Assembly: GCA_963699135.1 (NCBI GenBank)
Contig: OY969415.1
Span: 1,355,450-1,419,449 of the forward strand
Reading direction: 5' to 3'
DNA length: 64,000 nt
DNA from: an uncultured Armatimonadetes bacterium
GTDB lineage: Bacteria; Armatimonadota; Hebobacteria; Hebobacterales; Hebobacteraceae
The stretch's first letter is position 1; every line of letters starts with the position of its first letter. The notes beneath the pieces are model-generated. The model searched no databases. It saw only the letters and a program-made list of their open reading frames with translations, and had not been told where the DNA came from. The translations under genes and the position numbers were made by a program. Below are positions 1 through 63,902 of this stretch, piece after piece.

Positions 1-1948
1 CTCTCCGGTCGGGGCGCTCGCCGGCACCGTAGATCGCCGACTCTTCGGCCACCTCGTCCACCAGCAGATCGCGGATCGCCTTGCGGATGGACTCCGGCGT
101 GATGCCGTGCTCCTCGTTGTACTCCACCTGCCGGCTGCGGCGGCGGTTGGTCTCGTCGATCGCCCGCCGCATGGAGTCGGTCACGTTGTCCGCGTACATG
201 ATGACCTGGCCGCTGCACGTGGCGGGCGGCGCGCCCCATCGTCTGGATCAGCGACATCTCGGAGCGCAGGAAGCCCTCCTTGTCCGCGTCCAGGATCGCC
301 ACCAGGCTGACCTCGGGCAGGTCGAGCCCCTCTCGCAGCAGGTTGATGCCGACCACCACGTCGTACACCCCGAGCCGCAGGTCGCGCAGGATCTCGACGC
401 GCACCAGCGTCTCCACCTCGGAGTGGAGGTAGTGCACCTTGATATCCATCTCCGCCAGGTACTCGGACAGGTCCTCCGCCATCTTCTTCGTGAGCGTGGT
501 GACCAGCGCTCGCTCGCCCCGCTCGACGCGCGCCCTGATCTCGCCGATCAGGTCGTCGATCTGGCCCTTCGTCGGGCCGGACGATGATCTCCGGGTCGAC
601 CAGGCCCGTCGGGCGGATGATCTGCTCGACCACCTGCTGCGGACTGGCGCGGCCTCGTAGGGCCCCGGCGTGGCCGAGGTGAAGATCACCTGGCTGACGC
701 GCTCCTCGAACTCGTCGAAGGTGAGCGGGCGGTTGTCATAGGCCGAAGGCAGCCGGAAGCCGTACTCGCACCAGCGTTATCCTTGCGGGAGCGGTCGCCG
801 CCGTGCTGGCCGGCGATCTGCGGGATCGTCTGGTGGCTCTCGTCGATGATCATCAGGAAGTCGTCCGGGAAGTAGTCCAGCAGCGTGTACGGCGGCTGCC
901 CCGGGCGCGCGGCCGTCGAAGTGCCGGGAGTAGTTCTCGATCCCCTGGCAGTAGCCGATCTCGCGGATCATCTCCATGTCGTAGCGGGTGCGCTGCTCCA
1001 GCCGCTGCGCCTCCAGCAGCATGCCGCGGTCGCTGGAAGTACTTCAGCCGCTCCTCCAGTTCCGCCTCGATGGTCGGCGAGCGCCTGCTCCTGCTGCTCC
1101 AGCGACGGTCACGTAGTGGGAGGCGGGGAAGATCATCGCCCGGTCGCGCTCGTCCTGCGCTTCACCGGTGACCGGGTCGACGGACGAGGATCCGCTCCAC
1201 CTCGTCGCCGAACATCTCGATGCGGGTGATCCGCTCCTCGTCCACCGGGAAGATCTCCAGCACGTCGCCGCGGACCCGGAACGTGCCGCGGGTCAGGTTG
1301 AGGTCGTTGCGCGTCGAACTGCATGTCCACCAGCCGCCGCAGCAGCCGGTCGCGGTCGTAACTCCCGCCGCTTGCTCGCACCTGGAAGGTGAATCGCTCG
1401 TACTCCTCCGGGGAGCCGAGCCCGTAGATGCAGGAGACGCTGGCGACGACGATCACATCCCGGCGCTCGAACAGCGCCTGCGTGGCGAAGTGGCGCAGCC
1501 GGTCGATCTCCTCGTTGATCGAGGAGTCCTTCTCGATGTAGGTGTCGGTCTGCGGGAGGTACGCCTCGGGCTGGTAGTAGTCGTAGTAGGACGACGAAGT
1601 AGTCGACCGCGTTGTCGGGGAAGAACTCGCGGAACTCCCCGCAGAGCTGGGCCGCGAGCGTCTTGTTGTGCGCGATCACCAGCGTCGGGCGCTGCACCCG
1701 CGCGATCACGTTGGCGATGCGTGAACGTCTTGCCCGAGCCGGTCACACCCAGCAGCGTCTGCCGCTTGTGGCCGTCGACGACCCCCTGGGTCAGCTTGCT
1801 CGATCGCCTGCGGCTGATCGCCCTTGGGCTGGTAATCGGAGACCAGCTCGAACTGCTGCGCCACGGCATCTCCCTGCGCGCAGCATCGCCCGCGCTGCGC
1901 CGCACTGCCGACACTATAACATACACACGGGCGTTTGCATAGACCCAT
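1..1948 (-). pseudogene. uvrB: Excinuclease ABC subunit B (UvrB). The C-terminus runs off the window start, and the gene is broken into at least 6 reading-frame segments.
   Basis: The minus-strand ORF fragments 1706-1948, 1453-1926, 1293-1709, 1133-1456, 777-1022 and 181-633 carry successive UvrB motifs in order: [19 protein letters not shown] (Walker A), [71 protein letters not shown] and [12 protein letters not shown]. Each fragment is in a different frame. Confidence 0.8.
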
Positions 1949-2236
1949 CGCGTGGCATGACCGCCACTCCTATGTCACCCCGAGGGAGGCGCTGCCACTG
2001 GGCAGCGGCGACCGTGGGGGTCTCGGCCTGGCCCTCTGAGGAGGGGGTGCCCGCCCGCAATGTCATTCCGAGCCGTCCGCCGAAGGCGGACGAGAGAGGA
2101 ATCCATTCCGGAAGTCGGCGTCCGCCGAGGCGGACGCCACTCCTGCCGTCCCGTAGCGTACCGCAGAGTGGGTCCGCGTGGGCCATTATAGCACGCTCAA
2201 CCGGGGAGAGAGTTCGCTGCGGGCGGCGTCCGGCTA

Positions 2237-8991: not shown

Positions 8992-11656
8992 CTACGCCAC
9001 AGGCGCCATTTGCAGCCAGTTGGAGCCGGCCTTGGTGTCTACCTTCAGGGGCACTTTCAGGTCATAGGCGCGCGACATGCACTCCTCGACGAGCGCCGCC
9101 GTCTGGCGCAGCTCCGGCTCCGGCACTTCCAGCAGCAGCTCATCGTGGACCTGGAGGATCATCTTCGCGCCGAGCCTTTGCGCGATTAGTTGCTCGCTCA
9201 CGCGCAGCATCGCCTGCTTGATGATGTCGGCCGCCGTGCCTTGCATAGGGGTGTTGATCGCCATCCGCTCGGCCGCCGCCCGCAGCGCCGCGTTGCGCGT
9301 GTTCAGCTCCGGCAGGCTTCGCCTGCGGCCGAACAGGGTGCGGACTTCGCCTGTCTCACGCGCCTGCTTGGGCATTTCCTCTATGTACTCACGCACCCTG
9401 GGGAAGCGGGCGAAGTACCGGCTGACATAGCGCGTCGCTTCCTCCCGCGGGAATGCCCATCTCCCGCGCCAGCCGGAAGTCGCTGATCCCGTAGGGGATG
9501 CCGAAGTTCACCATCTTGGCGAAGGCCCGCATCTCCCGCGTGACGTGGTCGCGGTCAACGCTGAAGATCTCCATCGCCGCGGCCAGGTGCAGATCCTCGT
9601 CCTCCTGGAAGACCTGGATCAGGTTCTCGTCGCCGGTGATGTGGGCGAGGATGCGCAGCTCGATCTGCGAGTAGTCGGCGGAGAGCAGCAGATGACCGGG
9701 CAGGCCGGGGACGAAGGCGCGGCGGATCTCCGATCCCAGCTCGCTGCGAATCGGGATGTTCTGAAGGTTCGGATCGCTGCTGCTCAGGCGCCCCGTCGCC
9801 GTCACCGCTTGGTTCAGCGATGTGTGCAGCCGGCCCGTCCCGGGGTTCACCAGCCGCGGCAGCGCGTCCACGTAGGTGGACTTGAGCTTCGTGATCTCCC
9901 GGTACTCCAGAATCCGGGCGACGATCTCCTGCTCCGACAGCCCCGCGAGCACATCGGCGTCTGTCGAGAACCCGGTCTTGGTGCGCTTGGTCTTGTCGGG
10001 CGGCAGCTTCAGCTTCTCGAACAATATCCGCTGGAGCTGCTTGGGCGAGCCGATGGTGAACTCCTCCCCCGCGAGCGCGTAGATGTCCCGCTCCAGCTCG
10101 GTGACTCTCCCGCCGAGGCGGGCCGACAGCGCCTCCAGCGCGGGCACGTCGATGGCGACGCCGATCTGCTCCATCTCCGCCAGCACGGTGACCAGGGGCA
10201 TCTCTAGATCGCCGAAGACACTTCGCAGTTCCAACTGGTCGAGCTGCGGCTGAAGCGTGCTCTGCAGCTCCCGGATCTCGCGCGCCTCGGCGGCCGCCCG
10301 GCTGGGCGCGGACCACTCGCCCAGCGATAGCTCCGCCTGTCCCCCGGTCTGTAGGTGATCGAACGCGGCGGAGTTGAGGTCATGCCTGCGGGCGGGATTC
10401 ACCAGGTAGGAGGCGATCATGGTATCGAAGCTCACGCCGCCGAGCGCTACCCCGCGCCGCGCCAGCAGGATGATGCTGCGCTTCAGGTCGTGGCCCACCT
10501 TGGAGATGGACGGCGACCCCAGCGCGGCCTTCAGCGGCGCCAGCAGCGCGTCGAGTTTGGTCTTGCCTCCGAGCACGATCGCAGGCTGGTCGCCCACCAG
10601 GAAGCAGAGGCCATGCAGTTCCGCCCGCATCGCCGACGCCGGGTCGGCCAGCGGATGCAGGATGAACTCCTGCGCCGTGCCCAGCTCGGCCGCCAGCTTC
10701 TTGGCCTGGTCGACGCGCTCGATCAGCCGGTGCTCTTCGCTCACTTCCACCCGCGCCGGCTCCAGCTTTGGGATCAGCGTGCGGAAGTCGAGGCGGCGGA
10801 AGATCTCCGCCAGGCGCGCCGCCTCCGGGGGACGTCGCCGCAGCGCCTCCTCATCCAGCTCGATTGGCAGATCACGCACGATGATCGTCAGGTCCTTCGA
10901 GCGCCGCGTCAGTTCGGTGTAGGCGGTCAGCGCATCGCCGATGCGCGGCGGCTTCACCTCGTCGGCATGGGCGAGGACGTTCTCCAGGTCGCCATACTTG
11001 ACGACCAGCGCGGCCGCGGTCTTCTCCCCTATCCCCGGCACGCCGGGGATGTTGTCGCTGGTGTCGCCCCGCAGCGCGCGGAAATCCGGCAGGCGCTCGG
11101 GCGGGAAGCCGTATCGCTTCATCACCGCCACGGGATCGTAGATCACGGTGTCGCTTATGCCGCGGCGAGTCATCATCACGGAGACGCGGTCGGACACGAG
11201 TTGGAGTTCGTCGAGATCGCCGGTGACGACCAGCACGCGGCAACCGGCCTGCTCCCCCTTTAGCGAGAGCGTGCCGATGATGTCGTCGGCCTCATAGCGC
11301 TCCATCGAGTAGATGGGGATGTGCATGGCTTCGAGAATCTCGTAGGCCATGCCGATCTGCGGCCCCAACTCCGCCGGCATCTGCTGGCGGGTGGCCTTGT
11401 ACTCGGGGTAGCTCTCGTGCCGGAAGGTGGGAGTGGGGAGATCGAAGGCCACCGCCACCAGATCGGGCTGCTCCTCCTCCAGAATCTTGAGGAGCATGGT
11501 GGTGAAACCATAGGCCCCGTTCGTCACCTCGCCCTTCGCGTTCGTCAGCGGGGGTAGGGCGAAGAACGCGCGGTAAAGCAGGCTGTTGCCGTCGATCAGC
11601 AGCAGCTTGCGAGGCGCGGCATCCGGCGCTGGGTTTTGCTCGGGCGGATCGATCAC
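8992..11656 (-). CDS. polA: DNA polymerase I (5'-3' exonuclease, 3'-5' exonuclease-like and polymerase domains), interrupted by one frameshift near 9415
   Basis: The 755-aa ORF 9389-11656 ends inside the palm domain (..FGIPYGISDFRLAREMGIP). The 134-aa ORF 8992-9396 carries the PolA C-terminus (RAAAERMAINTPMQGTAADIIK..QVHDELLLEV). At the junction the sequence ATTCCCGCGGGAGGAAGCG contains one extra C in a CCC run. Removing it gives an uninterrupted, PolA-like IPREEATRYVSRYFARFPRVREYIEEMPKQ. Confidence 0.85.
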
Positions 11657-12868
11657 CTGTCCGCCGACTCGACTTCGCGCTGCAGCGCGCCCTGGGCGAG
11701 CCGAGCTGCCAGTTCGTCGTAGAGCAGCCCGCCGCTCACCGTCACCTTGCTGCGGCTGCCGGGCCCCGCGTTTCCGAGTAGCCAGCGCAGCAGACCGGGC
11801 TGCCCGACTTCCTTCGCCTTCGCCCTGCCGGGGATGCCCCCCAGCCGGCCGGCCGCGGCGAGCGCGTCCTGCATCCCGCCGAGTTCGTCCACCAGCCCAT
11901 TCGCCTTCGCCTGCTGGCCGCTGTAGATGCGGCCGTCGGCGAGCTTGCGCACGCCTTCGAGCGTCAGGCCCTTGTCCTTGCGGCCGTCGGCGACGGCCTT
12001 GATGAACTGCTGGTGGGTTTCGGTCAGCAGCTTGTCCATCAGGGCGCGCACCTCGGGGGAGATCGGGCCGAAGGGCGACATCATGTCCTTGAACTTGCCC
12101 GCCTTCAGCGTCTCCATCTTGACGCCGATCTTGCCGAAAAGGCCGGAGATGTCCTGATGCTCGGAGATCACGCCGATGCTGCCGGTGATGGTGGCCGGGT
12201 CGGCCCAGATCTCGGTGGCGGGAGCGGAAATGTAGTAGCCACCGGAGGCCGCCACGTCGGCCATGGAGACTACGACGGGCTTGTGCTTACGGGCGCTCTG
12301 GACGGCAGCGTAGATCTTCTTGCGAGGCCGCGGCCGAGCCGCCGGGGCTGTTCACGCGAATCAGGATCGCCTTCGCCTCCCCGTCATCCGCGGCGTCCTG
12401 GATCTGCTGCACGATATCGTCCGACCCGCTGGCGGCGCCGCCGAAGGGCGAGTAGCCTCCCGGCCCGGCGATGATGATGCCGTCGACGCGCACCAGAGCC
12501 ACGCGGTCTCCGCCCACCTCCAGGCCCTTCATCCCGCCGGCGGTGCCGATGAGGCCCAGCACCCCTATCACCAGGATGATGATCACTAGCAGGCACCCGG
12601 CGAGGCCGCAACCGCAGCCCCAACGCCAGGCCGTGTTGCGCTTCTGGGGCGGGGGCGGCGGGTAGTAGTACGGAGGCGCGGCCGGCGGCGGGGGTGGTGG
12701 TGGCGGGACTGACCCGGCCGTTGGCGGCGGTGGCAGGGCCGCGGGCGGAGGTGGCGGCGGCGCCACGGGTGGGGCCGCGGTCTGCGTTGGCGCGGGGGCC
12801 TGCGCTTCCGGCGTCTCGGCAGCCTGATCTTCGGTTGGCGGTTGTGGCGGCTGTTCGGAGGTCACGTT
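11653..12868 (-). CDS. sppA: Signal peptide peptidase SppA (protease IV, 36K type). It has a Pro-rich N-terminal region and a TM helix. One frameshift lies near 12275.
   Basis: ORF 12287-13063 carries ..VALVRVDGIIIAG..IVQQIQDAADDGEAKAILIRVNSPGGS. ORF 11653-12264 carries MADVAASGGYYISAPA..GSIGV.. and the rest of the SppA domain. A plausible GTG start at about 12868 is preceded by GGAGAG. The gene overlaps the polA start by 4 nt (ATGA). Confidence 0.7.
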
Positions 12869-16210: not shown

Positions 16211-16215
16211 CGGAG

Positions 16216-19309: not shown

Positions 19310-19690
19310 GGGGAGGGAACGGCGTTCACCGCAGAGACGCAGAGGGCGCAGAGAACGGCAACGGCCTGCCCGCCAGTATCCTGGCGGGCAGAGCCCGCAA
19401 TTGGGGGCGACCGGCGATTCGCCCCCAAGCCCCCCACTCGCCTTTGGCGTTGCTGACAAGAGCGGAGGGTAGCAGCGAGAGAAGGTAGCAGAAGGCAAGT
19501 CACGGGAGGCGACGAGGGCTCCCGCCGAACGGGACCGCGGGGGCTTCGGCAGCCCCTAAGTCCGCCGTAGGCGGACCGGGGTGGCGGCACTTTGCCTAGC
19601 CATAGAACTACCGAAGCAACGGCAACGACGAGATTGCCACGGGGCAGCGGCAGGCCGCTGCCCCTCGCAATGACAGATAGGCGCGTTCAC
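19310..19690. repeat. Intergenic mosaic of hairpin repeats
   Basis: Contains CTGCCCGCCAG-tat-CCTGGCGGGCAG; GGGGGCGA-ccggcgat-TCGCCCCC (a compensatory variant of the 17775 module); GTCCGCC-GTAG-GCGGAC; and the unit gattgccacggggcagcggcaggccgctgcccctcgcaatgaca. Confidence 0.75.
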
Positions 19691-21364
19691 GTGGTCGGAG
19701 GCGGAAGGTGAGGGGGGTGGGGCCGACGGGGGAGCGGAGGGCGAGGCGGTTGGAGGAGGGTGAGGAGGTGTTGTCGGCGGTGTAGGAGTTGAAGGGGCTG
19801 ACGGGATACTCGATGGTGGTCTCGGGGCGAAAGGTCAGGCGGAGGCCGCGGTAGAGGAGGGCGCCGCGGTGTTCGCCGGGCGCGACGGTGAAGGGCTCGT
19901 CGCCGAGGGTGATCTCGCCCCGGCCTTCGATGGTGCAAGTCTCTCCGTGGGACACGGCCGGCACGAGGGTGAGGGTGACGGGGCGGGCGGCATCTGTGAC
20001 CGAGAAGGCGAGTTCGACGCCGCCATCGATGAGGCGAGAGGCCACTCTCGCGTTGAACCCGGAGTAGCGATAGGAAACCACTTCTTCCTCACCCCCCGCT
20101 GACACCAGTTTCGCCTCCAGCGGCATACACGAGGCCCCATCTCCGGCTTGCGAGAAGGTCGCCAGCTCGGGCTGGAACTTGGAGTTGCTGCCGTCGATGA
20201 CGAGGCCGGCCTGCTGATGCCAAACGCTGACGAGGGCCTGGCGGTCGAGGCAGAACTGGTTGTCGGGCCACGGTTCGGAGCACTGACCGGAGAGAGCCAC
20301 CACCCAGGGGTCCTGCTTGCGGAGGGCGGAGGCTCCGTCGAGGGTGGCGCGGTAGGAGGGCTGCTTCTGGGGGGGCGATGTTTCCTCACCTTCTTCCAGC
20401 AGCAGGAAGGCCTCGGCGACGCGGGCGACAGTCTCGCCGGACAGGCCATCGCGGTGGCGGCGAAGCTGCTCCAGCATAAAGCGAACGTAGCCGCGGCCAT
20501 CGGGCCAACGAGTGAAGCCGGCGAGGCCCCACATGAGTGGGCTTGAGAGGTGTTGCATGCGGCCATCGATGCATTCGACGGGGACGCCGTCGGGGTAGGT
20601 CCAGTGGGAGTGGAGGTCGAGCCCGCGGCGGAGGGCGGGGAGGCCGGTCGGGTCGCCGGACCAGATGGTGTACTGGCCGACGCCGTCGTAGGTGAGGAAG
20701 TTGTAGCCGAGGGCGGGGCCGTGGTGCTCCTCCCAATAACCGCCGGGCCGCTGGTCGGCGATGAGGCGTCGCATGAGATCGGCGGAGAGGTCGGCCCACT
20801 CGGGGCGGTCGAACTCGCGGCCGGCGAGCCAGAGCAGCGCGAGATAGAGTGCGAAATGGTTGGTGCCGGTGCCCACCTGGTGGGAGGTGAAGCGCGCGAC
20901 ATCGCGGTGGGGGAGCAGGTGGCGGTGGAGGAGCCAGTCGCAGGCGCGGATGATCTTGTCGCGCCAGGTGGCCTCGTCGGCCGCGGTAGTCGCTCCCGGA
21001 GGAGGCGGTAGGCCTGGAGCCAGGCGCAGGTAAGGCGCTGGCAGACGAAGGGGTGGCTGAGCGTCACGCCGCGCAAGCGCCAGGTCATGGTTCCGTCGTC
21101 GGCGATGCGGCTGGCGATGTGCTCGCCATTTCTCAGGATCGCCTGCCACAGCCGATCATTGCCGCGCCAAGGGTTGCCGGGGCGATCGGAGGTATGGAGC
21201 AGGGCGGCCGCGAGAATGTACTGCTGGTCGAAGAAGTTCCACTCGTTGGTTTCGTGCTCGCGCTCGGTGGAGAAGCGGCCATCGCTCCACTGGAGGTCGA
21301 GAAACTGCTCGGCGCTGCCAGCGACGAGGTCGAGGCTCAGGTCCCGCAAAGTGGGGTTCGGCAT
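19608..21364 (-). CDS. Hypothetical protein, possibly a heparinase II/III-like polysaccharide lyase, with one frameshift near 21030
   Basis: The N-terminal roughly 110 aa are in the frame of ORF 19835-21364 (MPNPTLRDLSLDL..WRLRGVTLSHPF). The rest is in the frame of ORF 19608-21149. The gene starts 10 nt downstream of the LmbE-like gene. The functional call is weak. Confidence 0.35.
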
Positions 21365-25150: not shown

Positions 25151-25362
25151 CTCGCTGGCGCTCGTGGCAAATGCGCCAGAGGCGCACAAGCCCACGCCAC
25201 TGGCCGGCGGGAGGCCGCGCGGCGAGCGAGGGGGCCAGGGAAGGGGGGGGGGGAGCGACGTTGGGCAGGAACGGGTTCTGGAGCCGTGGTAGTTAGCCCT
25301 CAGTACCGGTGCGGCCCTCTTTCCATGGTCACACCCCTAGCACCGGCGTCAGCGAGGCAGCG

Positions 25363-33123: not shown

Positions 33124-33135
33124 GAGGTATCTGAA

Positions 33136-37078: not shown

Positions 37079-37560
37079 TACTTCGCCTTTGCCTTCGCCT
37101 TAGTCTTCGACTCGGCGACGATCTGCTTCACGACTGTCTCGAAGTCCTGGCGCGACCAGTAGACGTCCATGCGCTTCAGAAAATCGACGCTCTCGGTCTT
37201 GCCGTTCGCCCGCTTGATGTCCCACTTCGTCTTGCCATTGACGAAGACGCCGGAGCAACTCAGGCCCGGTCTTCATCCAGGCCTTGCGTCCCTCGGGCGT
37301 CTGCTGATCGTAGAGCTCGAGGGTGACGTCTTTGGCATGGGCCTTCTGGTACTTCTTCAGGTAGTCGGCGATGAACTTGTGCTGGGAGCTGAACGGGTAG
37401 TAGGCCTGCACAAGCACGGGGGTCTTCTGCTGAGCCTTCGCGACGGTGGCCTTGGGGGCCGACTTCTGCCTGGCATCGGCGCCAGCGAACGCAACCTGCA
37501 CGGCGACCGCCATGATGATGCAGGCGCAGAACAGGGACAGTCTCGACTTCATCCGCATCC
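37078..37560 (-). CDS. Thioredoxin-fold/DsbA-like secreted protein with one frameshift near 37265
   Basis: ORF 37100-37948 contains MRMKSRLSLFCACIIMAVAVQVAFAGADA..YYPFSSQHKFIADYLKKYQKAHAKDVTLELYDQQTPEGRKAWMKTG. The shifted frame continues LSCSGVFVNGKTKWDIKRANGKTESVDFLKRMDVYWSRQDFETVVKQIV..* and ends with TAATG overlapping the modA start. Confidence 0.4.
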
Positions 37561-38399: not shown

Positions 38400-39789
38400 C
38401 TAGTAGACGACCTGCAACTGCACGATAGCGGAGTTCCCATCCCACTTCGTGAACTCGGAGAATTTCGGCTCCGCGTCGCGCTTCTCGAAGGCGAAGGTCA
38501 GCCGGGTGGCCTTGTCCAGGTTGTACCAGTAGCCGAAGCTCCATCGCTTGAACAGGTCATTGGGCGCGGCGCGATTCTCATCGTAAGTATCGTATTTCGC
38601 GAAGAGCAGGTTCGGCTGCTTCTTCGCGATGGGATGACCGACCTGGCCGTACCAGCCGCGGACGTCTCTGCCTTTGTCGTTGCCGGTGACGAATTCGCCC
38701 AGGAACTGGGTGCCGCCCCAGTGATAGCGGGCGCTCACGGCGTTGCGGTCCTGGCGGGTGCGGGCGGTGCCCTCGTTGTTGGTGCCGGTGTAGCCGGAGA
38801 GGGCGACGGAGCCGCTCTTCAGGGGGAAGTCAACGCGGGCCATCAGGTTCTGGTGGTTGTTGTTGTCGGTCACGTCGATGCCGGTGCCGTTGAACGCGCC
38901 AACATCGAGCTTCGGTGCCTTCGGCGACTGACGGTAGTTGAGATCCAGCCCCAGGTCCCGCTGATCGGGGAAGAGCCGGTCCATGAAGAATGCCGCGCTC
39001 GCCCGACCACAGTTCCTGCGTCGGCTCCTCCAGCTCGTACCCCCAGGGAAGCGTCATTTGTCCCATGCGAACGCGGGACTCGGGGGTGGCCTGATAGTCG
39101 ATGTAGGCGCTTCGCAGTTGAGCCTTGCTGCCGGGGCCTTTGCCGGTCTCTTTCGAGTCGAACTGCATCTCGATGCGGTAGGAGGTGCGGTCGCTGACCG
39201 GTCCGCGAACGTTCACGCGAGCGGTTCGGACCAGGAACTCCTTCCGGCCGAGAGTCGCCTTGTCGTCGCGGAAGCGCAACTGCATGTAGCCGTCGATCTG
39301 GTGCTGCTTGCGCTCGGCCTCGACTTTGGCGAGGCGCTGCTGCGTATCCTTGAGGGCGGTGGCGAGGTCGTCGACGCGGGCGCCCATGGTCACGAGTTCG
39401 GTGCGGAACTCCTGGATCAGCTTCTCGACGCGGGCCACATCCTCTAGCGTCGCGCCGGCAGGAACAACGGGCGCGGCGGCGGTCCCTTCCTCGGCGGGGA
39501 GGGTCTCGGCGCGGGCGATCTGCTGGAGAGCCTGCCCCTGCTCCTGATAGGCTTTGCCCAATCCTTCGACGGCGCGCAGGGTCAGCGAGGCGGCCTCGAA
39601 CCGGGTGAGCTGCTGGGTCCAATCAGCGAGAGCTCCCTTGGGATGCCCGATCAGCAGGCCTGCGCGCGCGAGCGCGTCGAGGTCCTGGAACTGCCAGTCC
39701 GCCGGCCCGATGACCGGAGCCGCGGCCCAGGCCGAGCCGAAGCACAAGAGGATAAGCAGTACATTGATTGCGATCTGTCGCTTCAGCAT
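38400..39789 (-). CDS. Outer-membrane porin with an N-terminal SLH-like domain, a coiled coil and a C-terminal beta-barrel (OprB/SlpA-like). One frameshift lies near 38950.
   Basis: ORF 38830-39789 has a signal peptide, a segment WQFQDLDALARAGLLIGHP and heptad-rich coil. ORF 38400-38984 has alternating beta-strand sequence ending ..NSAIVQLQVVY. Confidence 0.5.
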
Positions 39790-39898: not shown

Positions 39899-41210
39899 TT
39901 ACTCCAGAGTGAGTGTGAGGGCGTTCTGCCCGCCGCTGACAAGATCCATCTCCTTGGTCACAGACCGGTCGCCGACGGTGGCGACGACGCGGTAGTGGCC
40001 GAGGAAGCCGCGGAAGTGAGCGACGCCGCTGCTGTCGGCCTGGGCGTCGAGGCGGGTCCACCACTTGCCCTTGACCAGAGCCATCAGGCGCTGATAGGCC
40101 GGCTTGGGGGTGAGGTCGGCGCGGACCAGGCCGGCGGGCGCGCCCTGCCATTCGCCATCGTTGAAGTCCCACCAGGTGATGGCGCGGACGGCGGGGTGGG
40201 AGAAGAGGACGGTGTAAAGCCGCTCGACGTACTGGGCCTGGGCGGCCTCGCCCTCGGGGGTGCTGGGCCACGGCTGGGGCCGCTCCCAGCCGTGCTCGCC
40301 GGAGAGCACGGTGACCTCGGTGAAGTGCAGCGGGCGGCCGAACCGCGAGTAGGTTTCGCAGGCTTCCCAGAGCTTCGTGATGGGCCATTCCTCGCGATGC
40401 ATGTGGCTCTGAATGCCGAAGACGTCGACGGTGTTCGCCTTCACCAGCTCGGCGGCGAGGCGTTCGTAATCCTCGCCGAGGTTGTATTCGTTGTAGATGA
40501 GCGTCGCTCTCGGGTTGGCGGCCCGCGCCCAGGAAAGGGCTTCGATCACCATGGCGGCCGCGCGCCTTCTCCTTGGCCCAGTGGCCAACACCGTTGTCGA
40601 CTCCGGCGGAAACGGTGGCCTCGTTCACGACATCCCAGGTGTCGATGAGGCCCGCGAGCTTCGACACGATCTCGCCGACGCGGGCGCGCAGCTTCCCGCG
40701 GGTCTCCTCGACGCCGGAGGGAGCCCAGGCGGGATACACCTCATGCCAGACGAGGGGATGGCCTTTGACCGTGATCCCGTGGTCGCGGCACCACTGGGCC
40801 TGACGGCGGAGATGCTTCTCGAGGGTGCGACCGGGCTCGGGCTCGTAGGCGGCCCAGTAGAAGCCGAGGGTGGCGTAGTTGAAGAGGTCGGCGAACTCAC
40901 GCTCGTAGCGGGCCTCCATGGTAGCGTCATCGGAGCGGAGCACGGGGAAGGCGTTGCAGCCGAAAAGGAAGGCGTGACGCGTCTGCTCGATGCGCAGGCC
41001 GGCGTTGGGCACAGGCTGCCCCTTGGCGTCGACCACGCGCAGGGCGGCATCGCCCTTCCGGTATTGCTCGATGCGAGTACCGGCCGTGGTGAGGATAGCC
41101 TCTTCGCTCATTCCGCGCCTTTCGTCGCTGCGGCCGGGAGCGCCAGAGGCGAGGGCTGCGAGCAGGAGGGCCGCGAGCAGCGGTCGCGGCGCGCGCAGAC
41201 GCCCGAGCAT
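39899..41210 (-). CDS. Glycoside hydrolase family 10 endo-1,4-beta-xylanase (secreted), with one frameshift near 40580
   Basis: ORF 39879-41510 has a signal peptide (MLGRLRAPRPLLAALLLAALASG) and the GH10 N-half (..HPLVWHEVYPAWAP.., DTWDVVNEAT). ORF 39899-40591 has the GH10 C-half (..IYNEYNLGEDYERL..VDVFGIQSHMH..ITEVTV..TWWDFNDGEWQG). Confidence 0.7.
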
Positions 41211-43457: not shown

Positions 43458-44344
43458 CTAGGTGAGGGGCTTCGACCACTCGTTGAGGTTGTGCTTGCGG
43501 CGGAAGCCGGCCCTCTCGTAGGCGCGGAGGGCCGGGACGTTCTCGAAGCCGGTACTGATGAGGACGAGGCCCGCGCCCCACTCCCGCAGGCGGTGGAGGG
43601 CGCGGGAGACGAGGGCGGTCGCCAGGCCCTTGCCGCGGTGGGCTTGGTCGGTACCGACGAAACCGAGCTGGCCGATGGGCTTGTCGGCGGCGCGTAGATC
43701 GGGATAGAGGCGGCCGCCGCAGGTGGCGGCTTCCTTGCCCTGGGAGAGCGCGACGAGCCGGAACACGCGCGCCTTGAACTCCGGATCGGCGTTGGCGTCG
43801 GCGATCTCGTAGCCGGCCGGGGCGCGAACTGCGGCGGATCGGCCGACAGGTCGGCGACCAGGAACGCCTCCGACTGGGTCATGACGAAGCCGGACTGGAC
43901 GAAGGCGTTGGTGGCATCGGCCGCCCAATGGGGGTGATAGGGCTCGAGGCCGAGGAGGTACCCTCCATAGAACGCGCCGGAGGAGCAAGTGGGACCGCAG
44001 ATACCCTTGGCTCCGGCGGCGCGGGCGCGGCACTCGATTTCGGTGAGCAGGGCCACTCCCTCAGCTACCGCGCCGGGGGCGAGCGCGAGGAGATGCACGA
44101 AGAACTCCCGGCCGCGGCTCTCGCCGTGGGCGAAGGCGAGAGGTCTGCCCGCGGCGTAGGCGATGAGCATGTTCTCGGGCTGATATCTGTCGCCGAGGGT
44201 GGGCCAGTGGGCGAGCAGCGCGGCGTCGATGGGCCGCGTGTAGGGCCAGCCGCGGGTGTAGGCGTTGACGAGGGCCGCCATATCGGCCTCGGTGGCGGGG
44301 GAGACGGAGGCGATTGTCAGGTCGCTCGCGGTCACGATCCGCTC
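43458..44344 (-). CDS. GNAT family N-acetyltransferase with one frameshift near 43800
   Basis: The C-terminal frame carries the acetyl-CoA motif QLGFVGTDQAHRGKGLATALVSRALHRL..ENVPALRAYERAGF. The N-terminal part lies in the frame of ORF 43391-44449, with a GTG start at about 44344. Confidence 0.55.
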
Positions 44345-45394
44345 ACGAATAGCGCCCGACCTTCCAGCCCTCGTCGAGCATGGCGAGGTAGTTGGCGACG
44401 GGAATGTAGTTGGCGACGGTGTTGCCGGAGCCGAGGGCGTAGCCGCCACCGGGGGCGCAGCCTTCGATGCAGCGGCGGGTGTAGGCGCGGACCTGGTCTT
44501 CGCTGCCGCGGGCGAGCACGTCCATGTCCACGCCGCCGAGGAGGGCGCATGCGGTCGGCCCCACTGGCCTTCGCCTCCCAGACCGGCATGATGACGTCCT
44601 CGAAGGAGTGCTTGGCGTCGATGCCAACGTCGTCGATGAGGTCGTCGATGATCTCGTCGAGCTTGCCGCAGGAGTGCAGCAGCACGGGCTTGCCGCGGCG
44701 GTGGGCGATCTCGCAGATCCGCTTCTGCGTCGGGAAGACGTACTTGCCGAGCGCCTCCGGGGAGGCCATGGGTCCGCCCTTGAACCCCATGTCATCGTTG
44801 AGCCACTGGGCGCCGACGCAGTCCATCGCCGAAGTGATCTCGACCAGATCGCAGAGCGACCTGGCCGACCTTATGAGCGATGGCGGCAACGAGGTCGGGC
44901 TGGTCGACGAGGGCGTAGCTGAAGGCCTCGAAGCCCATGAGGAAGGTGAGGTTCTCGAATGGCCCGCCAGGAATGGTGGCGCAGATCTTCATGCCATCGG
45001 GGAGATGGCGGGAAAGGGTCTCGATGGAGCGGACGGCGCCGGGGGTCACCTCGGGCCAGGGGTAGTTCTCGAAGTCCTCCCAGGTCGTGATCGGCCCGGT
45101 GGATTCGTTCTGCCAACCGCGCTCGCCATGGGAGAGGGGAGCGGTGTCGGCGACCCGGAGGCTGGTGGTGGGGAAGCCGATGTCGGTTCCCTGGGTGATG
45201 TAGTCATAGCCGAGGTCGCGCCAGAACTTCGCGCGCCAGGCGGCCGCGCTATCGGGGTCGGAGGGCGAGGGGCCCTGAATGGCGGCCATGATCTCGTAAT
45301 CGTGGGAGAACTCGGCGAAGGGGACGCGTTCCGGCTCTCCCTGGCGGCGCACGACCCTGAGGAATCGCTCGAAGTTGGGATCGGGCTTTCTCAT
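44343..45394 (-). CDS. URO-D/MtaA-like family protein (third paralog), with about 2 frameshifts
   Basis: ATG 45394 begins MRKPDPNFERFLRVVRRQGEPERVPFAEF..KICATIPGGPFENLTFLMGFEAF. The rest lies in ORF 44332-44889 (..LLHSCGKLDEIIDDLIDDVGIDAKHSFEDVIMPV) and ORF 44343-44795 (..CIEGCAPGGGYALGSGNTVANYIPVANYLAMLDEG..). Confidence 0.55.
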
Positions 45395-46852
45395 GTTGAC
45401 TCCCGGATGACGATGACGCTGTCGATGCCGAGGGCGTCGGCGATCTTCTGAATGGTCCCGGCGTGGTGGCCCAGACCCAGGGCGAAGTGATGGGTCGGGC
45501 CCTCCGCGATCCAGCGCTTCAGGAACGTCTTGACGTCGGGCTGGAAGAAGCCGCGGGTGTTGGTGTTGCCAGTGGCGGGGATGGGGCCGGCGACAGATTC
45601 GCCCTCGGCGATGACGAACTTGAACCGGCCGTCGTGGGTCTGGGTGAGGCCGAGCATGGTGATGGGGCCTTCCTTGATCTTGAACTCGACGGAGGCTCCC
45701 GATCCGGGCTTGCCGTGGTACTTGGTGAGGCTGCGCAGCACGGGCCGGCCCTCCGCGATGCTGATGTGGTGGGGCCCGTCGTGGCCGACGAGCACGAAGC
45801 CCTCGGCGAAGTCGACGGGATGGAACTCGGCGAAGCTGCCGCCGATGTCGAGTCGGTCCAGGATGAGCATGGCGACGCAGGTCTTGAGATCGCACTCACC
45901 GCACATCGGGAAGCCGGCGGCGGTGAGGAGGGAGTTGCCGACGATGAGGTTGCTGACGACCTGCCGCATCTCGCTGCCCTCCTCCGCCTCGTAGTAGTAG
46001 GCGAGGCCGTCGAGCTTCTGCGTGGCTACGAACTTGTCGAGGGCAACGGCCACCCGGGCCGCGGTCCGCAGGTCATCGTCGGTGAGCTTCCGCGTCACCG
46101 GGTCTGCTCTGGGGTCGGGGGTGTCGAAAAAGCCAAGGATTTCCTGGCTCTTCGCGGCGATCTCCGGGTCGGTGACGGCGCGGTATTGCCGCAGAATCTC
46201 ATCGGGTTCGGTCTGGACGACGTGGAGGCCGAAGTGAGCAGTGAAAGCAGTGGGGTCGCTGTGCATGTCGAGCATGGCTTCGAGCACGTGGCCCATCTGG
46301 CCGATGCGAGCGCCGCGGAGATCGTGCAGCACCTTGGCGACGTCGCACCAGTCGGCGATCTCACCCCGCGCTCCGGCGTCATCGTGCAGGGTGCCGATGA
46401 CGAGGGCGGCGGGCGCTTGCCGAGGCGGACGGCGACGCCGGAGAACTCCGGGAGGGAGCAGATGTTGTCGTTGGCGAGCTGCATGCAGGTGGTGGCGCGG
46501 GCGTAGTCCATGGCACCGAGAGGCTGGAGCGCGACCAGTACGATGGGGACGGTAAGCTCGCGGCACGATCAGGCCGAAGGTGGAGCTGGTGGCGTAGGTG
46601 AGCATGTCGCAGAAGACCAGGTCGAGGTCGGCCGCCTTCAGGCGCTTGAGGGCGGATTGCGCGGACTCGGCCTCATCCACCAGGCCGACGTTGACGACCT
46701 CGACGTCGTTCGCCCAGACCATCTCCTCGAAGAGGTCGAGGTAGCCGAGCAGCTCCTCCCGGAGGCCGGCGAACTGGTCCCAATAGGTGTGGTGGCCGAC
46801 GCCGAAGACGCCGACTCTGGCGGTGCGCGGTTTGCGTCGCGGGACTTGCATA
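45391..46852 (-). pseudogene. L-arabinose/L-fucose isomerase-family sugar isomerase with at least 3 frameshifts
   Basis: MQVPRRKPRTARVGVFGVGHHTYWDQFAGL..DLDLVFCDMLTYATSSTFG lies in the frame of ORF 45391-47577. MDYARATTCMQLANDNICSLPEFSGV lies in ORF 46095-46511. The C-terminal two thirds (..IGQMGHVLEAMLDMHSD..GFPMCGECDLKTCVAMLILDRL..) are back in the first frame. Confidence 0.5.
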
Positions 46853-47040: not shown

Positions 47041-48999
47041 GTGAAACTGACTCCCCGCGCGCTGATCGTCGGTCTGGTCGGCATCGTCCTGGTATCGCTG
47101 GTGGTCGCGTGGGCGGAGCTGGTGTACGGGCAGATCATGATCGGCCTGCTCCAGATGCCGCCCATGGTGGTGTTCTGCGCTGTTTGCCCTGGTGCTGCTG
47201 AACAAGGGGGCGAAGCGCGTCTCGCCGCGGCTGGTCGCTGCAGCCGGGCGAGATCGCGGTGGTGTACTGCATGCTGGTGGTGGCGGCGATGCTGTCGTCG
47301 CACGGGCTGATGCAGCGGCTGATGCCCGACGCTGGTGGGGGTGAACTACTATGCCGACCCCGGCAACCGGTGGGACCGACTGTTCTTCCCGAACGTCCAT
47401 CCCTGGATGGTGCCGTGGGACCCAGGCAGCGGCGCGCACCAATGGACGGCGACTGCTTTCTATGAGGGGTTGAGGGAAGGCGAGAAGCTCCCGTGGCTGC
47501 GTGTGGCTGAAGCCGCTGGGCGCGTGGATGATCCTGGCGATTGCGATCTTCGGGGCCTTCTTCTGCTTCGCGACCATCGTCCGCCGGCAGTGGAGCGAGA
47601 ACGAGCGGCTGTCCTATCCGCTGGTGCAGCTCCCCGTGGAGCTGATCCGGGAGCAGCCGGGGCGATCTTTCCTCAGCAACCCGCTGACCTGGATCGGGTT
47701 CGCCGTCCCCACCATCGTGTACGGGATCAACGGGCTGCACAACTGGGATCCGTCGCTGCCGCAGATCAACCTGGCGATCTACATCAACGACTACCTGACG
47801 GATCGCGCCCTGGTCCGACATCTCGTGGTTCACGGCCTACATCTCGCCGGGGGCGGTCGGCTTCTTCTACCTGTTGCCGCTGGAGCTGCTGCTGAGCTTC
47901 TGGGTGTTCCTGCTGCTGGCGAAGGCGCAGGATGTGGTGGTGTCGGCGCTGGCGCTGCCCCCGATGGACGCCCAGCACGCGGGCGCCAACGGCTACATGG
48001 CCTACCAGACGACGGGCGCCTACTTCATGCTGGTGATCTACCTCGGGCGCGGTGGCGTGGCCGCACCTGAAGAGCATCCTGCGGCGGGCGGTCGGGCTGG
48101 GCGGGCCGGATGGGCAAGCAGGAGATGATCTCCTACCGGGCTGCTTTCTGGGGCCTGGTCGCGGCGCTGGTCGATTGCGGTGGTCTGGCTGCTCCAGTCG
48201 GGAATGACCATCGGCTACGCGGTGTTGGTGCTGCTGATCTACGTCTTCGTCGAGGCGGTGGTGATGGCGAGGGGCGTGCGCGGAGGGCGGGCTGCCGATG
48301 ACGGAGGGGTGCTTCATCCCGATGGACGTCGTGGCGCTGGGGGTGCCGCAGATCAGCCTGGGGCCGAGCAACCTGACGAGTTCGGCCTTCTTCGACGCCA
48401 TGTTCACCCGCGACCTGCGGGGCATGCTGCTCCCCGCCTTCCTCGACGGGCAGAAGCTCGGCGACGAGATCGGCGTGCAGCGGCGCACCCTGGCCGCGGT
48501 GTTCGCCATCGCGGTGCTGGTGACGATTCCGGTGGCGGCCTTCATCCAGCTCTCGCTGCCCTATCACCGCGGCGCGCCTCGACGCTGGGTCGCTCCTATA
48601 TGCTGCAGGCACCAGAACATTCAGTTCTTCCGGGAGAACTCGGCCTGGCTGCAGGGGCGAGAGTCCGCACCTCTCCGGGCGCGCTGATCTAGCTTCCTCG
48701 CGGGCGGCGCGGTCGACGGCGCTGCTGGCCTTCCTGCGGGTGCGCTACGTGGGGTGGCCCTTCCATCCCATCGGGTACGTGCTCTGCACCTCCTGGACGG
48801 TGCTTAGCTACTGGTTCCCGATGCTGGTGGCCTGGGTGATCAAGTCACTCGTCGTGCACTACGGCGGGATGCGGCTTTACGGACCAGGCTGCGGCCGCTA
48901 TTCCTGGGGCTGATCTTCGGCGAGTTCACATCGGCGGTGATGTGGACGCTGATCACGGTGTTCTGGCACGTTCGCGCGCCGTTCTTCCCGTGGACGTAG
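47041..48999 (+). pseudogene. Large polytopic membrane protein of unknown family, broken into at least 8 frame segments
   Basis: The hydrophobic and coding-like fragments on + lie in ORFs 46510-47310 (tail), 47335-47895, 47501-48070, 47874-48128, 48110-48301, 48180-48692 and 48298-48687. A further terminal segment ends ..FFPWT*. Confidence 0.35.
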
Positions 49000-49712: not shown

Positions 49713-50800
49713 TCAGCACCCCTCGTTGTAGAACACGTACAGCCCGTCCTTGCCGGGGGCGACGATGTCGAGGCGGCCGGTGCCGCGCAGGTCGGCGATG
49801 GCGAAGTGGATGCCGCAGCCGGTGCCGACGCGGGTCGGGCCGTAGTCGATCACCTGCTTGGCGAACGACTCGCCGGTCCACTTGAAGTAGTAGATGCCGA
49901 CGTCGTCGTACTCGCCGGGGTCGTTGCCGCAGTGGGCGCGGTAGCGCTTGCCGGTGACCAGTTCGCAGGCGCCGTCGCCGTCGATGTCCACCCACTGCAG
50001 GTCGTGGTACTGCGCGTTGTAGGGGTCGATGGGATGCTTGGTCCAGGTGCGGCTGCCGGCGGCGTCGCGGCCCTGCTCCCACCAGTCCAGGCCGTAGTCG
50101 TGGGCCTGCCCGACGATGAGGTCGTTCAGCCCGTCGCCGTTGACGTCGACGACGAGGATGGGGATGCTGGCGCTGGCCGAGGTCGAAGTCCTGGTGGAAG
50201 CGTCCACTCGCCGCCGAGGGGATCGTCGGGCGCCTCCAGCCAGCCGTGCGCGAGGACGAAGTCGCCGCGGCCGTTGCCGGTGATGTCGCCGAAGCCGAGG
50301 CCGTGCCCCTGGGGCTCGGTCGCAGATCGTGTGGCTGGCGAAGGTCCCGTGCCCTTGCCCGCCGCGTCGGTGACGAGCTTGTAAGCGACGAGCGGCCCAC
50401 CGGGCGTGTTGGGGACGATCTCGAGCTGGCCGTCGCCATCCACGTCCCAGGCGCGGGTGGTCTCGACGTTGCCGACCTCGGCGATGACGTGCTCCGGCCA
50501 CTCCTCGCCCGTCGGCGCCGGGGTTCTCGCGCCAGCGGAGCGTGTTGCCCCACCAGCCGCCGGTGATGAAGTCCAGGTAGCCGTCGCCGTTGACGTCCAT
50601 GGGGATGGTGGAGAAGTCGTCGAAGTACTCGCCGGCCGCCAGCACCTCGCCGATGCGAGTGCTGCCTGCCGGAAGTCCGGCCCTTGGTACCAGTAGGCGC
50701 CGGAGACGATGTCGAGCACGCCGTCGTTGTTGACGTCGAACACGCCCGCGGACTCGTAGCGCTCGTCGGCGATGAGGGTCTTGCGGAACTTCAGCGGCAT
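49713..50800 (-). pseudogene. FG-GAP/VCBS-repeat (ASPIC/UnbV-like) beta-propeller protein with at least 4 frameshifts
   Basis: Repeated DxDGDG-type motifs lie in three frames. These are FDVNNDGVLDIVSGAYW, MDVNGDGYLDFITGGWW, WDVDGDGQLEIV, GDITGNGRGDFVLAHGW, VVDVNGDGLNDLIVGQ and VDIDGDGACELVTG. The C-terminus is ..DIVAPGKDGLYVFYNEGC*. Confidence 0.5.
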
Positions 50801-57176: not shown

Positions 57177-58776
57177 CTAGCCTCGCTGATCCAGCATCGC
57201 CAGTATCTGCTGCCGTCGCTCCTGAATCCACGCCTCAGACCGCGGGAACTCGGCGTAGTCCTGGATCTCCGAGAGCATCGCGTCAGACGGATCGATGCCG
57301 GCCGCCTGCAGCAGCGCGTAGTCCTGGAGGCTCTCGGCCCAGACTTCCCACCGGATCGAGTCCACGGGGCCGGCCTCGCCGGGGTAGACTACGAACGTGT
57401 CCCCGTAAGGGAGATCGGGGTCCTTCCCATCGCCCGACTGGTAGGGGTCGAGCAGCTCGGAGGTCTGGAATCGGTACCAGTAGTTGTGGCCCCAGTGGAG
57501 GAAGCCGCGGGCGCGATTCCTGTAGAAGAGCCAGCCCGCCATGCGAGTCTTCACCAGAAGGGTGTCCATCAGGCGGTTCAGGTAACGGCGGCGCGGCTCC
57601 AGACAGAAGTAGGCCCAGGCCGGGAAGCCTTCGCTCACGAACTGAGGGGCCTCGCTGATGACCGCGATGGGGACGTCGGTCAGGCCCTCCCGGGCGAACT
57701 CGATCTGAGAGAGCGCGTCCATCACCTTCATCCAGGGCGCGACCTCGCGGAGCATCTGACGCGGCGAGGCGGTAGTTGGCGCGATGCTCGTCACCGTGGG
57801 GCTCATCGGAGAGGTGGAAGAAGCTGGCCTCGAAGATGCCCTCGGCATCGAGGAACCGCTTGAACTCCGGCAGGTACTGGGCGAGGAAGTCGCGGTAGAT
57901 CGGGGAGACGCCGAGGGTCTCGGGATCCCAGAGCAGCTTCTTGGTCTCGCCGTGGCCCTCGTAGACGCGGATGGCGAACTTGGCGCCCCACTGGGTGAAG
58001 AGATGGTTCCACTCGTAGCGGGTGAGGCCGGCCGCCTGCGCGGTCTTGATCCAGCGCTTCACCAGCGTCCAGTCGAAGGTATAGCGATCCCCCTGCTTGC
58101 CGACGCCGAGAAGCTGGGTCGGGCGCTTCACGCCGTCGGTCGGGGGCGTGAAGGCGGGGACATGGGTGGTGTCGTGATAATGGGAGGACAGGTTCTTCAG
58201 GTACGCCTCCAGCAGCGGCCAGAAGGACTCCTGCCAGAGTTCCGTGTGGTACCAGTCACAGAGCGCGTCGGCATAGAACCAGTGAGTGACAGGGAAGTCG
58301 CGGCGCGGCGCGGCCATCGCCTTGTGCACGACCACGGTTGCAGCCAGACTGACAGGCTCCAGCTTCCCGGCGGTGAGCGTCACCACCGCCTTGCGCCGGC
58401 CCGGCCTGGCGTCGACGGGGACGCGCACGGTGATCCAGAAAGCGTTGGTGGCGTAGGGCCCGCTCATGATCTCGGAACCCGGAAGCAGAGGGTCGGGCAC
58501 GAGGCCGGGCAGATGGCCGACCCCATCGAGTTCGTCGACCGGCGTGTCGGTCGAAACGTGGCGGAACGGCACGAAGCCGACATGGCGCACCTGGACGGAG
58601 AGGCCGGCGGAGGCCTCGGCGGACGCCTGCACCTTCGCGGCCTCGGCCTCGGTGCGGAAGCACACCTGGAAGGAGACGGTCTCGCCGCGGGCGGCGTGAA
58701 GCACGAGCGTCCTGCGCTTCTGGGCGCGCGACGTCGGGTAGTTGCGAACCAGGGAACTCGCAAGCCAAGATTGCAT
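57177..58776 (-). CDS. Hypothetical protein, possibly DUF4091/glycoside-hydrolase-like, with one frameshift near 57800
   Basis: ORF 57283-58776 gives the N-terminal roughly 330 aa (..THWFYADALCDWYHTELWQESFWPLLEAYLKNL..FFHLSDEPHGDEH). ORF 57177-57848 gives the C-terminus (..GFLHWGHNYWYRFQTSELLDPYQ..). Confidence 0.35.
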
Positions 58777-62032: not shown

Positions 62033-62050
62033 AGCCCCCTCTTTCCGAGG

Positions 62051-63040
62051 CGATTAGGCCTCCACGAAGTGCCCGAACCCTCTCAGCTTCTGGTATCTCG
62101 CGGCAACCAGCTCGTCGACGGGCAGGGCCCGCAGGCGCGCGAGGTTGCGGGTGATGGCTTCCTTGAGCGTCTGGGCAGCGGCCGCGGAGTCTTTGTGGGC
62201 GCCGCCGAGGGGTTCGGGGACGATCTCGTCGACCGCGCCGAGCGAGAGGGTCTGCTTCGCCGAGAGCCGCAGGGCTTCGGCCGCCTCGGGGCCGCGGCTC
62301 GGCGTCGCGGCCGAAGGCGTTGAGGATGACCGCGCACGACTCCGGCGGGATGACGGAGTAGATGGCGTGCTCCAGCATCATCACGTGGTCGCCCGACGGC
62401 GAGCCCGATGGCGCCGCCGCTGCCGCCCTCGCCGATGATGGTGACGACGATCGGGGTGCGGAGCGCGGACATCAGCATCCATGTTCTCGGCGATGGCGTT
62501 GGCGATGCCCCGCTCTTCCGCCTCCAGGCGCGACTCGGCCGCGGGGGTGTCCACGAAGCTGATCACGGGACAGCCGCATCTTCTCCGCCAGCTTCATCAC
62601 GCGGGCCGCCTTGCGGTAGCCCTCGGGCCGGGCGCTGCCGAAGTTGCGGAACTGCCGCTCCTTCACGTCCCGGCCCTTCTGGTGGCCGACGACCGCCACC
62701 GCGCTGCCCATCCAGCGGAGGCCAGTCCGGCCACGATCGCGGGGTCGTCGCCGAAGCGCCGGTCGCCGTGCAGCTCGACGAAGTCGCTCGAACATGGCGC
62801 CGATGTAGTCCAGCGTGTAGGGCCGGTCCTGGTGACGGGCGAGCAGCACGTTATCCCATGGCGGTTAGCATCGTGAAGACCTCACGCGTGACCTGCTCCT
62901 GCCGTGCGCTTGAGCGTCGTTCGACCTGCGCCTCGAGCCGAGCCCGCCGCTCGTCGCTGATGCTCGGCGGCGGTCAGCAGGCGCTCCATTTTCTGGATGT
63001 CCGCGTCCACCTCGCGCAATTGCCGGTCGAAGTGGAAGCC
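62051..63040 (-). pseudogene. accA: Acetyl-CoA carboxylase carboxyltransferase alpha subunit (AccA) with at least 3 frameshifts
   Basis: The fragments carry these motifs. ..FHFDRQLREVDADIQKMERLL.. and ..[17 protein letters not shown].. are one set. ..[38 protein letters not shown].. is another. ..[27 protein letters not shown].. and ..SALRTPIVVTIIGEGGSGGA..MMLEHAIYSVIPPESCAVIL.. follow. The C-terminus is ..GFGHFVEA*. They lie in several frames. Confidence 0.65.
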
Positions 63041-63042
63041 AC

Positions 63043-63902
63043 CTACCCATCGGCTCGTCCCTCCTCGTCGGCCTGCCGCTCGCCGTCGAGCGAGAGGATG
63101 CGGAGCAGACGGACCAGCAGCGGGCGCAACTCCTCGCGGTTGACGACGGTGTCGATCATCCCGTGCTGGTGCTGGAACTCGGTGGTGTGACTGCCGGGCG
63201 GCAGCTTGATCTTGAAGGCTTTCTCGATCACCCGGGGGCCGGCGAACCCGACCAGCGCGTTCTGCTCGGCGATCGTCACGTCGCCCAGGGAGGCGAAGCT
63301 GGCGAAGACGCCGGCGGTGAGGGGATCGGTGGCGACGATGAGGAACGGGATGCCCGCCTGGTGCAGGCGGCCGACGACGGCCGCGGTCTTCGCCATCTGC
63401 AGCAGCGAGACGATGCCCTCCTGCATGCGGGCGCCGCCGGAGCAGGCGAAGGTCAGCAGGGGCACGCCCCGCGCGATGGCGCGCTCGGCGGCGCGAGCGA
63501 ACTTCTCGCCCATCACCGCGCCCATGCTGCCGCCCAGGAAGCGGAAGTCCATGACCGCCAGCACCACGGGGAGGCCGTCGAGGGCGCAGTCTCCGCAGAC
63601 CAGCGAGTCGGAGAGGCCGCTGCGGCCCTCGTCGTCGGACAGCTTCTCGGGGTAGCCGGGGAAGTGCAGCGGGTCGCTCGACCTCAGTCCGCGGTCATGC
63701 TCCTGGAAAGTGCCGCTGTCGGCGGTGATGGCGATCCGCTCCCGCGCTGCAGGCGGCGGTGGTGGCCGCAGTGGCGGCAGACGTACAGATCCTCCTCCAG
63801 CTCCCGCTGGTAGAGCATCTCGCCGCACTTCTGGCACTTGGCCCAGAGTCCGTCGGGCACGCCATTGGGGAGCGGCGATCTGTTAGCGCGCTGTTCGCTC
63901 AA
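63043..63902 (-). CDS. accD: Acetyl-CoA carboxylase carboxyltransferase beta subunit (AccD) with one frameshift near 63800
   Basis: ORF 63684-63902 carries the N-terminal zinc ribbon (CQKCGEMLY..CRHCGHH). ORF 63043-63837 carries the CT domain (..MDFRFLGGSMGAVMGEKF..FACSGGARMQEGIVSLLQMAKT..GFAGPRVIEKA..). Confidence 0.75.

Follow-up and report, generated by a model that had tools for sequence, protein, structure and literature searches.

Decaying bacterial genomes, such as those of Mycobacterium leprae and of recent host-restricted symbionts, are marked by nonsense mutations, by deletions that vary in size, by relaxed patterns of substitution, and by pseudogenes that are common to isolates. 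Pseudogene decay in bacteria is normally biased towards deletion. Watson and Warr reportedly described, in 2019, gene-fragmenting indel errors in long-read assemblies of bacteria and metagenome-assembled genomes (MAGs). Indels that fragment genes are documented in long-read assemblies (the Kastor paper, PMC12007338; Sereika et al. 2022, PMC9262707). Here we describe a stretch of 64 kb from an uncultured Armatimonadetes bacterium (contig OY969415.1, positions 1,355,450 to 1,419,449; "the window" below means this whole stretch), where 21 or more of some 55 genes, uvrB, polA, accA, and accD among them, need frame correction. We conclude, with a probability of roughly 90%, that these frameshifts are errors in the consensus of the deposited assembly rather than mutations in the organism, and that they represent no biological feature. 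This reading rests on the absence of five of the indels from an independent assembly, on the selection pattern that the broken genes have kept, on their repair by frame shifts alone, and on an indel spectrum that does not look natural. The first two of these also support an earlier note on this DNA, which had preferred sequencing artefacts to pseudogenes.

The window is like the known long-read (Nanopore or PacBio) assembly errors in that one-base indels split conserved genes into adjacent open reading frames (ORFs) while neighboring genes stay intact, in that breaks vanish in an assembly of accurate reads, and in that it comes from one very long contig. The reported errors, however, fall mostly in homopolymers and, for Nanopore, are biased towards deletion, whereas the window has 61 net insertions against 10 net deletions and avoids homopolymers; its insertions are moreover packed into patches of 0.35-2 kb, at about one per 75-150 nucleotides (nt), with the remainder nearly clean. 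With pseudogene-rich decaying genomes the window shares its many frameshifted genes, repair genes included, but it has none of the decay traits of those genomes, and the absence of five indels from the independent assembly sets it further apart from them.

Extent of the frame breaks and evidence for their origin

A contig of 9,872 bp in the Logan assembly of run ERR15459707 encodes a GH15 protein of 680 amino acids (aa) identical to that of the window, and its neighbors are full length: GNAT (292 aa), GH10 (436 aa), porin (462 aa), ThiF (259 aa), a hypothetical protein (159 aa), SBP (270 aa), and MFS (420 aa). Compared on gene boundaries, protein lengths, and the GH15 identity, all 16 gene boundaries correspond to start and stop codons of the window only when the indels at 43820, 40564, 38995, 37265, and 34960 are undone, and there is no further difference in length across 9.4 kb. 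The indel thus has no counterpart at any of the five sites covered, and because the boundaries fit only in this way, the same strain exists without these five frameshifts. The frameshifts do sit in the deposited genome, since truncated products are already present in a public protein collection (polA, 755 aa; porin, 319 aa; hypothetical, 152 aa; sppA, 203 aa), together with an over-long MFS protein of 482 aa, all from one NCBI/ENA contig of 4,657,420 bp.

The breaks were located by comparison with contigs of relatives of about 90-94% nucleotide identity, taken from short-read (MEGAHIT k141) or JGI assemblies. Contig L001 covers 2.2-12.3 kb of the window and L013 covers 16.2-21.7 kb; L005 and L009 (one contig of 32.7 kb), with L010-L012, cover 25.5-51.4 kb; L006-L008 cover 50.4-54.1 kb; and L094, a JGI contig, covers 61.8-64.0 kb together with L095. 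The uvrB gene is covered by L002, which is 84% identical. Base-level alignment to the MEGAHIT contigs L001, L005, L009, L006, and L013, to L094, and, for uvrB, to L002 covered 39.6 kb of coding sequence and revealed 71 sites at which the frame is disrupted, in 21 of the compared genes. Two of these are doubtful cases at the end of a gene, namely a gene for a 655-aa hypothetical protein (6198) and BacTransf202 (28448); the remaining 19, with sppA and the GH123 gene, give the final tally of 21, so that the claim in the earlier note of at least 20 genes in need of frame changes held up. In the relatives compared, all of the genes broken in the window are intact and in frame at every site. A six-frame Viterbi pass based on codon usage had reported 59 frame switches, some of which are mere gene overlaps; at 7314, 11657, 23010, and 56380, genes simply abut or overlap and no frameshift is involved.

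The sites are very unevenly distributed, as had been noted before (chi2 = 222, df = 80, p = 2e-15), with 51 of the 81 bins of 500 nt holding none. Dense patches lie in accA (10.2 sites per kb), the DUF6785/DUF6784 membrane protein gene (7.7), one amidohydrolase gene (7.7), uvrB (7.0), and the FG-GAP repeat protein gene (5.5), each with about one stray base per 75-150 nt, as against 0 sites per kb at 2.2-4.3 kb, 7.3-8.7 kb, 16.2-19.3 kb, and 50.8-54.1 kb. The minimum counts given earlier for these genes were too low: the DUF6785 gene has 23 insertions (at least eight had been claimed), uvrB has 17-20 (at least five), and in accA/accD, where at least five breaks had been counted, accA has 10-13 insertions and accD one net deletion. 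By contrast, infC, which had been listed with a query as broken, shows no indel relative to L006 and is intact. Among the long genes that had been called intact, the S1 gene ends one base further on (7265-8662, not 7265-8661), and the gene at 4376-6238 may have lost its 5' end through an insertion near 6198.

Genuine pseudogenisation, in which a decaying or mutator lineage would have lost uvrB, polA, accA, and many metabolic genes to frameshifts, has in its favor that the deposited genome does carry the frameshifts, that the DNA-repair genes uvrB and polA are among those broken, and that the Logan contig does not reach the dense patches. The pattern of substitution speaks against it. Mismatch percentages at codon positions 1/2/3 are 7.8/4.6/18.0 for the broken DUF6785 gene, 5.8/3.3/20.1 for FG-GAP, 5.6/2.2/16.5 for accA, and 8.0/5.8/30.3 for uvrB, compared with 4.6/2.9/16.7 for the intact Big1 gene; third-position substitutions in the broken genes thus stand far above those at the first and second positions, as in intact neighbors and as is expected of purifying selection. 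Identity to relatives is similar throughout (90-94%), the broken genes being no more diverged than their intact neighbors. Frame shifts alone restore every broken gene, with no nonsense codon to be repaired, and the disruptions are all of 1 nt or, rarely, 2 nt, with no larger out-of-frame indels. The 23 one-base insertions in the 2-kb DUF6785 gene, against none or two in each of the flanking genes, would require an unknown, local, insertion-only mutational process operating beside untouched genes, and the insertion bias of the window as a whole counts against natural decay because bacterial decay favors deletions. Furthermore, accA and accD are normally essential, the close relatives are all intact, and the five sites covered by the Logan contig lack the indel in an assembly of the same strain. 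Relaxed constraint, nonsense codons, and a varied, deletion-biased set of indels were looked for, and none was found; neither the substitution patterns nor the indel spectrum gave evidence for the suggestion, made in the earlier note, that a few loci are genuinely decaying. We therefore regard pseudogenisation as highly improbable.

Indel spectrum and the probable nature of the breaks

The breaks had been put down to typical homopolymer indel error, and it may be asked whether ordinary length errors of long reads in homopolymers account for essentially all of them. A minority of the sites fits this description: polA and 34457 (both CC to CCC), 37265 (GG to GGG), 33373, and 34960 and 30521 (both C5 to C4) are changes in run length. 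Isolated events comprise 43 one-base insertions, two two-base insertions, and eight one-base deletions. Just 10 of these 43 one-base insertions lengthen a run and 33 do not, whereas bases inserted at random in these genes should produce 20.7 +/- 3.3 such extensions; a value as low as 10 was not seen in any of 2,000 simulations. Because the placement of gaps by BLAST is ambiguous beside mismatches, we repeated the test on sites with six matching bases on each side. Of the 20 insertions in this subset, four lengthen a run where 9.8 would be expected (P = 0.009); its three deletions, of which two lie in C5 runs and one in a GG pair, agree with homopolymer error. The runs concerned are just 2-5 nt long, however, and the dense patches consist almost wholly of insertions outside runs; in the DUF6785 gene, the inserted base is unlike both of its neighbors in nearly all 23 cases. 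Homopolymer error accounts for a minority of the sites, and as the explanation of essentially all of them it is very unlikely.

Two classes of break are present, a scattered few that change the length of short runs and a clustered majority of stray bases unlike both neighbors. If the frameshifts are consensus errors, the first class would consist of short G/C runs, scattered across the window, that were sporadically given one base too many or too few (C5 to C4, CC to CCC, GG to GGG), and the second of patches 0.35-2 kb long, in which a spurious base, usually unlike both neighbors, was inserted about once per 75-150 nt. The source is a single-contig genome of 4.66 Mb, most likely a long-read assembly, and the patches would most likely reflect locally inadequate polishing or read support. 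Candidate causes are low depth of the long reads, a gap in that of the polishing data, and a mixture of strains. A related catalogue, that of the MFD MAGs, to which this genome may or may not belong, was assembled solely from Nanopore reads, with a single Medaka round (PMC12313526). As to whether SNP alleles might have been merged into the consensus, the inserted bases are the transition partner of a neighbor at about the rate of chance, as judged by eye.

Programmed recoding, by which ribosomal frameshifting, transcriptional slippage, or RNA editing would restore the frames in the cell, finds nothing specific in its favor beyond a weak enrichment, about twofold, of CAGCG, AGCG, and CGCGC within 10 nt of insertions, which is borderline after correction for multiple testing. 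No slippery motif is common to the sites, up to 23 events would be required in one gene, none of the sites is out of frame in relatives of about 91% identity, and five of the indels are missing from the other assembly of the same strain. The probability that we attach to recoding is vanishingly small.

Several points weigh against the conclusion that the frameshifts are consensus errors. The Logan contig spans five isolated indels and no dense patch, so the case for the patches is indirect. The long-read origin of the 4.66-Mb contig is itself no more than likely, judged by its size. The spectrum, insertion-biased and homopolymer-avoiding, is unlike the homopolymer and deletion pattern reported for Nanopore assemblies (PMC12007338). 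An exact look-up of ten frame-corrected proteins (two versions of GH10, four of the porin, the 159-aa hypothetical protein, MFS, GNAT, and polA) found none of them in the public collection. We judge this last result to be uninformative, since the collection appears to be without the proteins of the Logan run: it lists the GH15 protein from NCBI and ENA only, even though the contig index places that protein on the Logan contig. Look-ups of contigs with the intact Big1, FKBP, rhodanese, and S1 proteins returned nothing on record and yielded no second same-strain contig, in particular none over a dense patch; exact look-ups of ORF fragments from the dense patches (fragments 5-10) also found nothing, probably because the start codons chosen by the depositor differ. 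Were the dense patches real, they would point to an insertion-only local mutational process, or to a mosaic population, the uvrB and polA of the lineage being damaged. A milder alternative is that the patches betray an undescribed, context-dependent insertion mode of a basecaller or polisher, to which the weak CAGCG/CGCGC association would belong. We give such possibilities very little credence.

Affected genes and their surroundings

The window has 67% GC and a single tRNA-Leu, and the best matches of its polA product are Armatimonadota MAGs. Among the GTDB species representatives scanned, the nearest match was OY970296.1 (MFD04408.bin.1.1), with 78% identity on accD. The broken genes lie on the minus strand unless marked as plus. 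At the left end, uvrB (18..1876) contains its inserted bases in a dense patch with a net change of +18 and no uncompensated deletion relative to L002. The ORF at 4376-6238, of 620 aa, may lack some 35-50 N-terminal codons in comparison with the 655-aa homologue on L001, the alignment around the one-base insertion near 6198 being ambiguous; the exact 620-aa ORF is absent from the public protein collection.

In polA (8993..11656), the sole gap in 2,614 nt aligned to L001 is an extra C, ATTCC[C]GCGGGAGG on the minus strand, at 9447-9449, where both L001 and L002 have CC. The single extra C had been recognized before, although its position had been placed at 9415, about 35 nt away. At 8977-8993, the window is without a URO-D gene that L001 carries between polA and rpsA. 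The neighboring sppA (peptidase S49, 11653..12865) has an inserted base near 12318, and tblastn with P0307 and P0310 places the frame switch at 12317-12321.

Near the other end of the window, accA (62057..63040) holds single-base insertions at 62300-63033 in a dense patch without net deletions relative to L094 and L095, and in accD (63045..63917) the net loss of one base falls within 63741-63749. Five relatives that are more distant (L002, L014, L099, L108, and L116) have accD-accA at 1-2 kb from tRNA-Leu/sppA/polA. The two groups are 48.7 kb apart in the window (13006-13098 and 61784-62059), with a block between them that carries the housekeeping genes infC-rpmI-rplT; this separation is either a real rearrangement or a misjoin of the long contig.

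Several of the remaining breaks are single events. A gene for a 559-aa hypothetical protein (19688..21364) has a 1-nt deletion at 20987, and a Wzy_C/TPR protein gene (25339..27826, plus strand) has an inserted T at 25642, near its 5' end. A URO-D-like (uroporphyrinogen-decarboxylase-like) gene, whose product has 321 aa in relatives (30003..30965), has lost single bases at 30521 (C5 to C4), 30652, and 30756. A second URO-D-like gene (349 aa, 44343..45394) has gained bases at 44547, 44556, and 44859 and lost one at 44566, for a net change of +2. The window holds at least three URO-D paralogues in 64 kb (18116-19306 and the two just named), and the contigs of relatives hold more. At lower coordinates than the first broken copy, the window lacks the second of the polysaccharide-deacetylase genes that the relatives have (277 aa; L009, 16580-17413); the corresponding stretch, 29322-30003, is about 600 nt shorter and is occupied by REP-like repeats instead.

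A thiamine-binding protein gene (32795..33125, plus strand) has an inserted base at 32944. It follows a rhodanese gene and, at 31208-32411, an encapsulin (Linocin_M18) gene with an EncFtn/rubrerythrin-like cargo gene upstream, both of which are intact. Next comes a tandem pair of amidohydrolase genes (33211-34825) that are 80% identical. The first (33211..33991; 257 aa in relatives) is a dense patch with insertions at 33338 (2 nt), 33373, 33421, 33596, 33616, and 33684, and its paralogue (34048..34825; 258 aa) has only the extra C at 34457.

The five sites spanned by the Logan contig follow. The MFS transporter gene (34940..36201) has lost a C at 34960, which lengthens the ORF to 482 aa; the gene for the 159-aa hypothetical protein (37078..37558) has an extra G at 37263-37265, which cuts its product to 152 aa; the porin gene (38400..39789) has an inserted base near 38995 and the GH10 xylanase-like gene (39899..41210) one at 40564; and the GNAT acetyltransferase gene (43458..44335) has lost a base at 43820. 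The GH15 gene itself (41305-43347) is shared by the window and the same-strain Logan contig and is not found in L009. A fucose/arabinose-isomerase-like gene (45397..46851) has lost a base at 46401 and gained one at 46562, which leaves 160 nt out of frame.

The DUF6785/DUF6784 membrane protein gene (47041..48999, plus strand; 645 aa in relatives) is the densest patch by number of sites, its 23 single-base insertions giving a net change of +22. A search for homologues of DUF6785 gave no relative above 70% identity, and the contigs L003 and L004 obtained from it are not syntenic with the window. On L003 (5624-8064; ENA ERZ25039462 contig_6889), a GH2 gene is called as four successive fragments of 244, 149, 134, and 147 aa, probably through the same kind of gene-breaking error in another public assembly; the contig_N name resembles that of a long-read assembler. 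The FG-GAP repeat protein gene (360 aa, 49713..50800) has six uncompensated insertions at 50177-50667 and a deletion at 50344, for a net change of +5. Between it and the DUF6785 gene, the window has an extra NUDIX gene (49039-49620) compared with relatives of 91% identity. Finally, the GH123 glycoside hydrolase gene (57177..58776) has an inserted base near 57759, and matches to the Pfam model of the catalytic domain are split over two ORFs (1-171 and 173-323), whereas the stitched protein matches 1-323 with 277 bits.

Mobile elements and repeats are also present. An IS481-family transposase gene (14813-16033) is intact, with inverted repeats of 67 nt, 84% complementary, bounding 14769-16091, and the element stands at a break in synteny relative to L013. 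Families of GC-rich intergenic repeats, hairpin-like in form (GAGATTGCCACG...GGCGGCAACGGCCGCCCCTCGCAATGACA), occur at 16114-16215, 17725-17943, 17978-18095, 25050-25113, and 29634-29972, and several copies are found on L013 too; no Rfam family matched them. Taken with an IS200-like Y1 transposase (RAYT-like) gene at 61193-61675, the repeats look like a REP/RAYT system. GC skew is unusually strong and sustained at 18001-36000 (+0.13 to +0.24 in 2-kb windows); over the initial 12 kb it lies between about 0 and -0.12.

Implications for the genome and the organism

Anyone working with the 4.66-Mb genome should note that, in the window, about 38% of genes are mis-called. The window has about 1.8 frame-disrupting sites per kb of coding sequence, and at that rate the number genome-wide may reach thousands. 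Such errors would lower completeness scores, which may, speculatively, account for the absence of the genome from the GTDB representatives, and they would produce false signals of "pseudogenes" or "genome decay". Because they are insertion-biased and lie outside homopolymers, correction tools that focus on homopolymers would miss most of them. As for the organism, it almost certainly has intact copies of uvrB, polA, accA, accD, and the other genes that are broken in its deposited sequence, and the frameshifts would carry no biological import.

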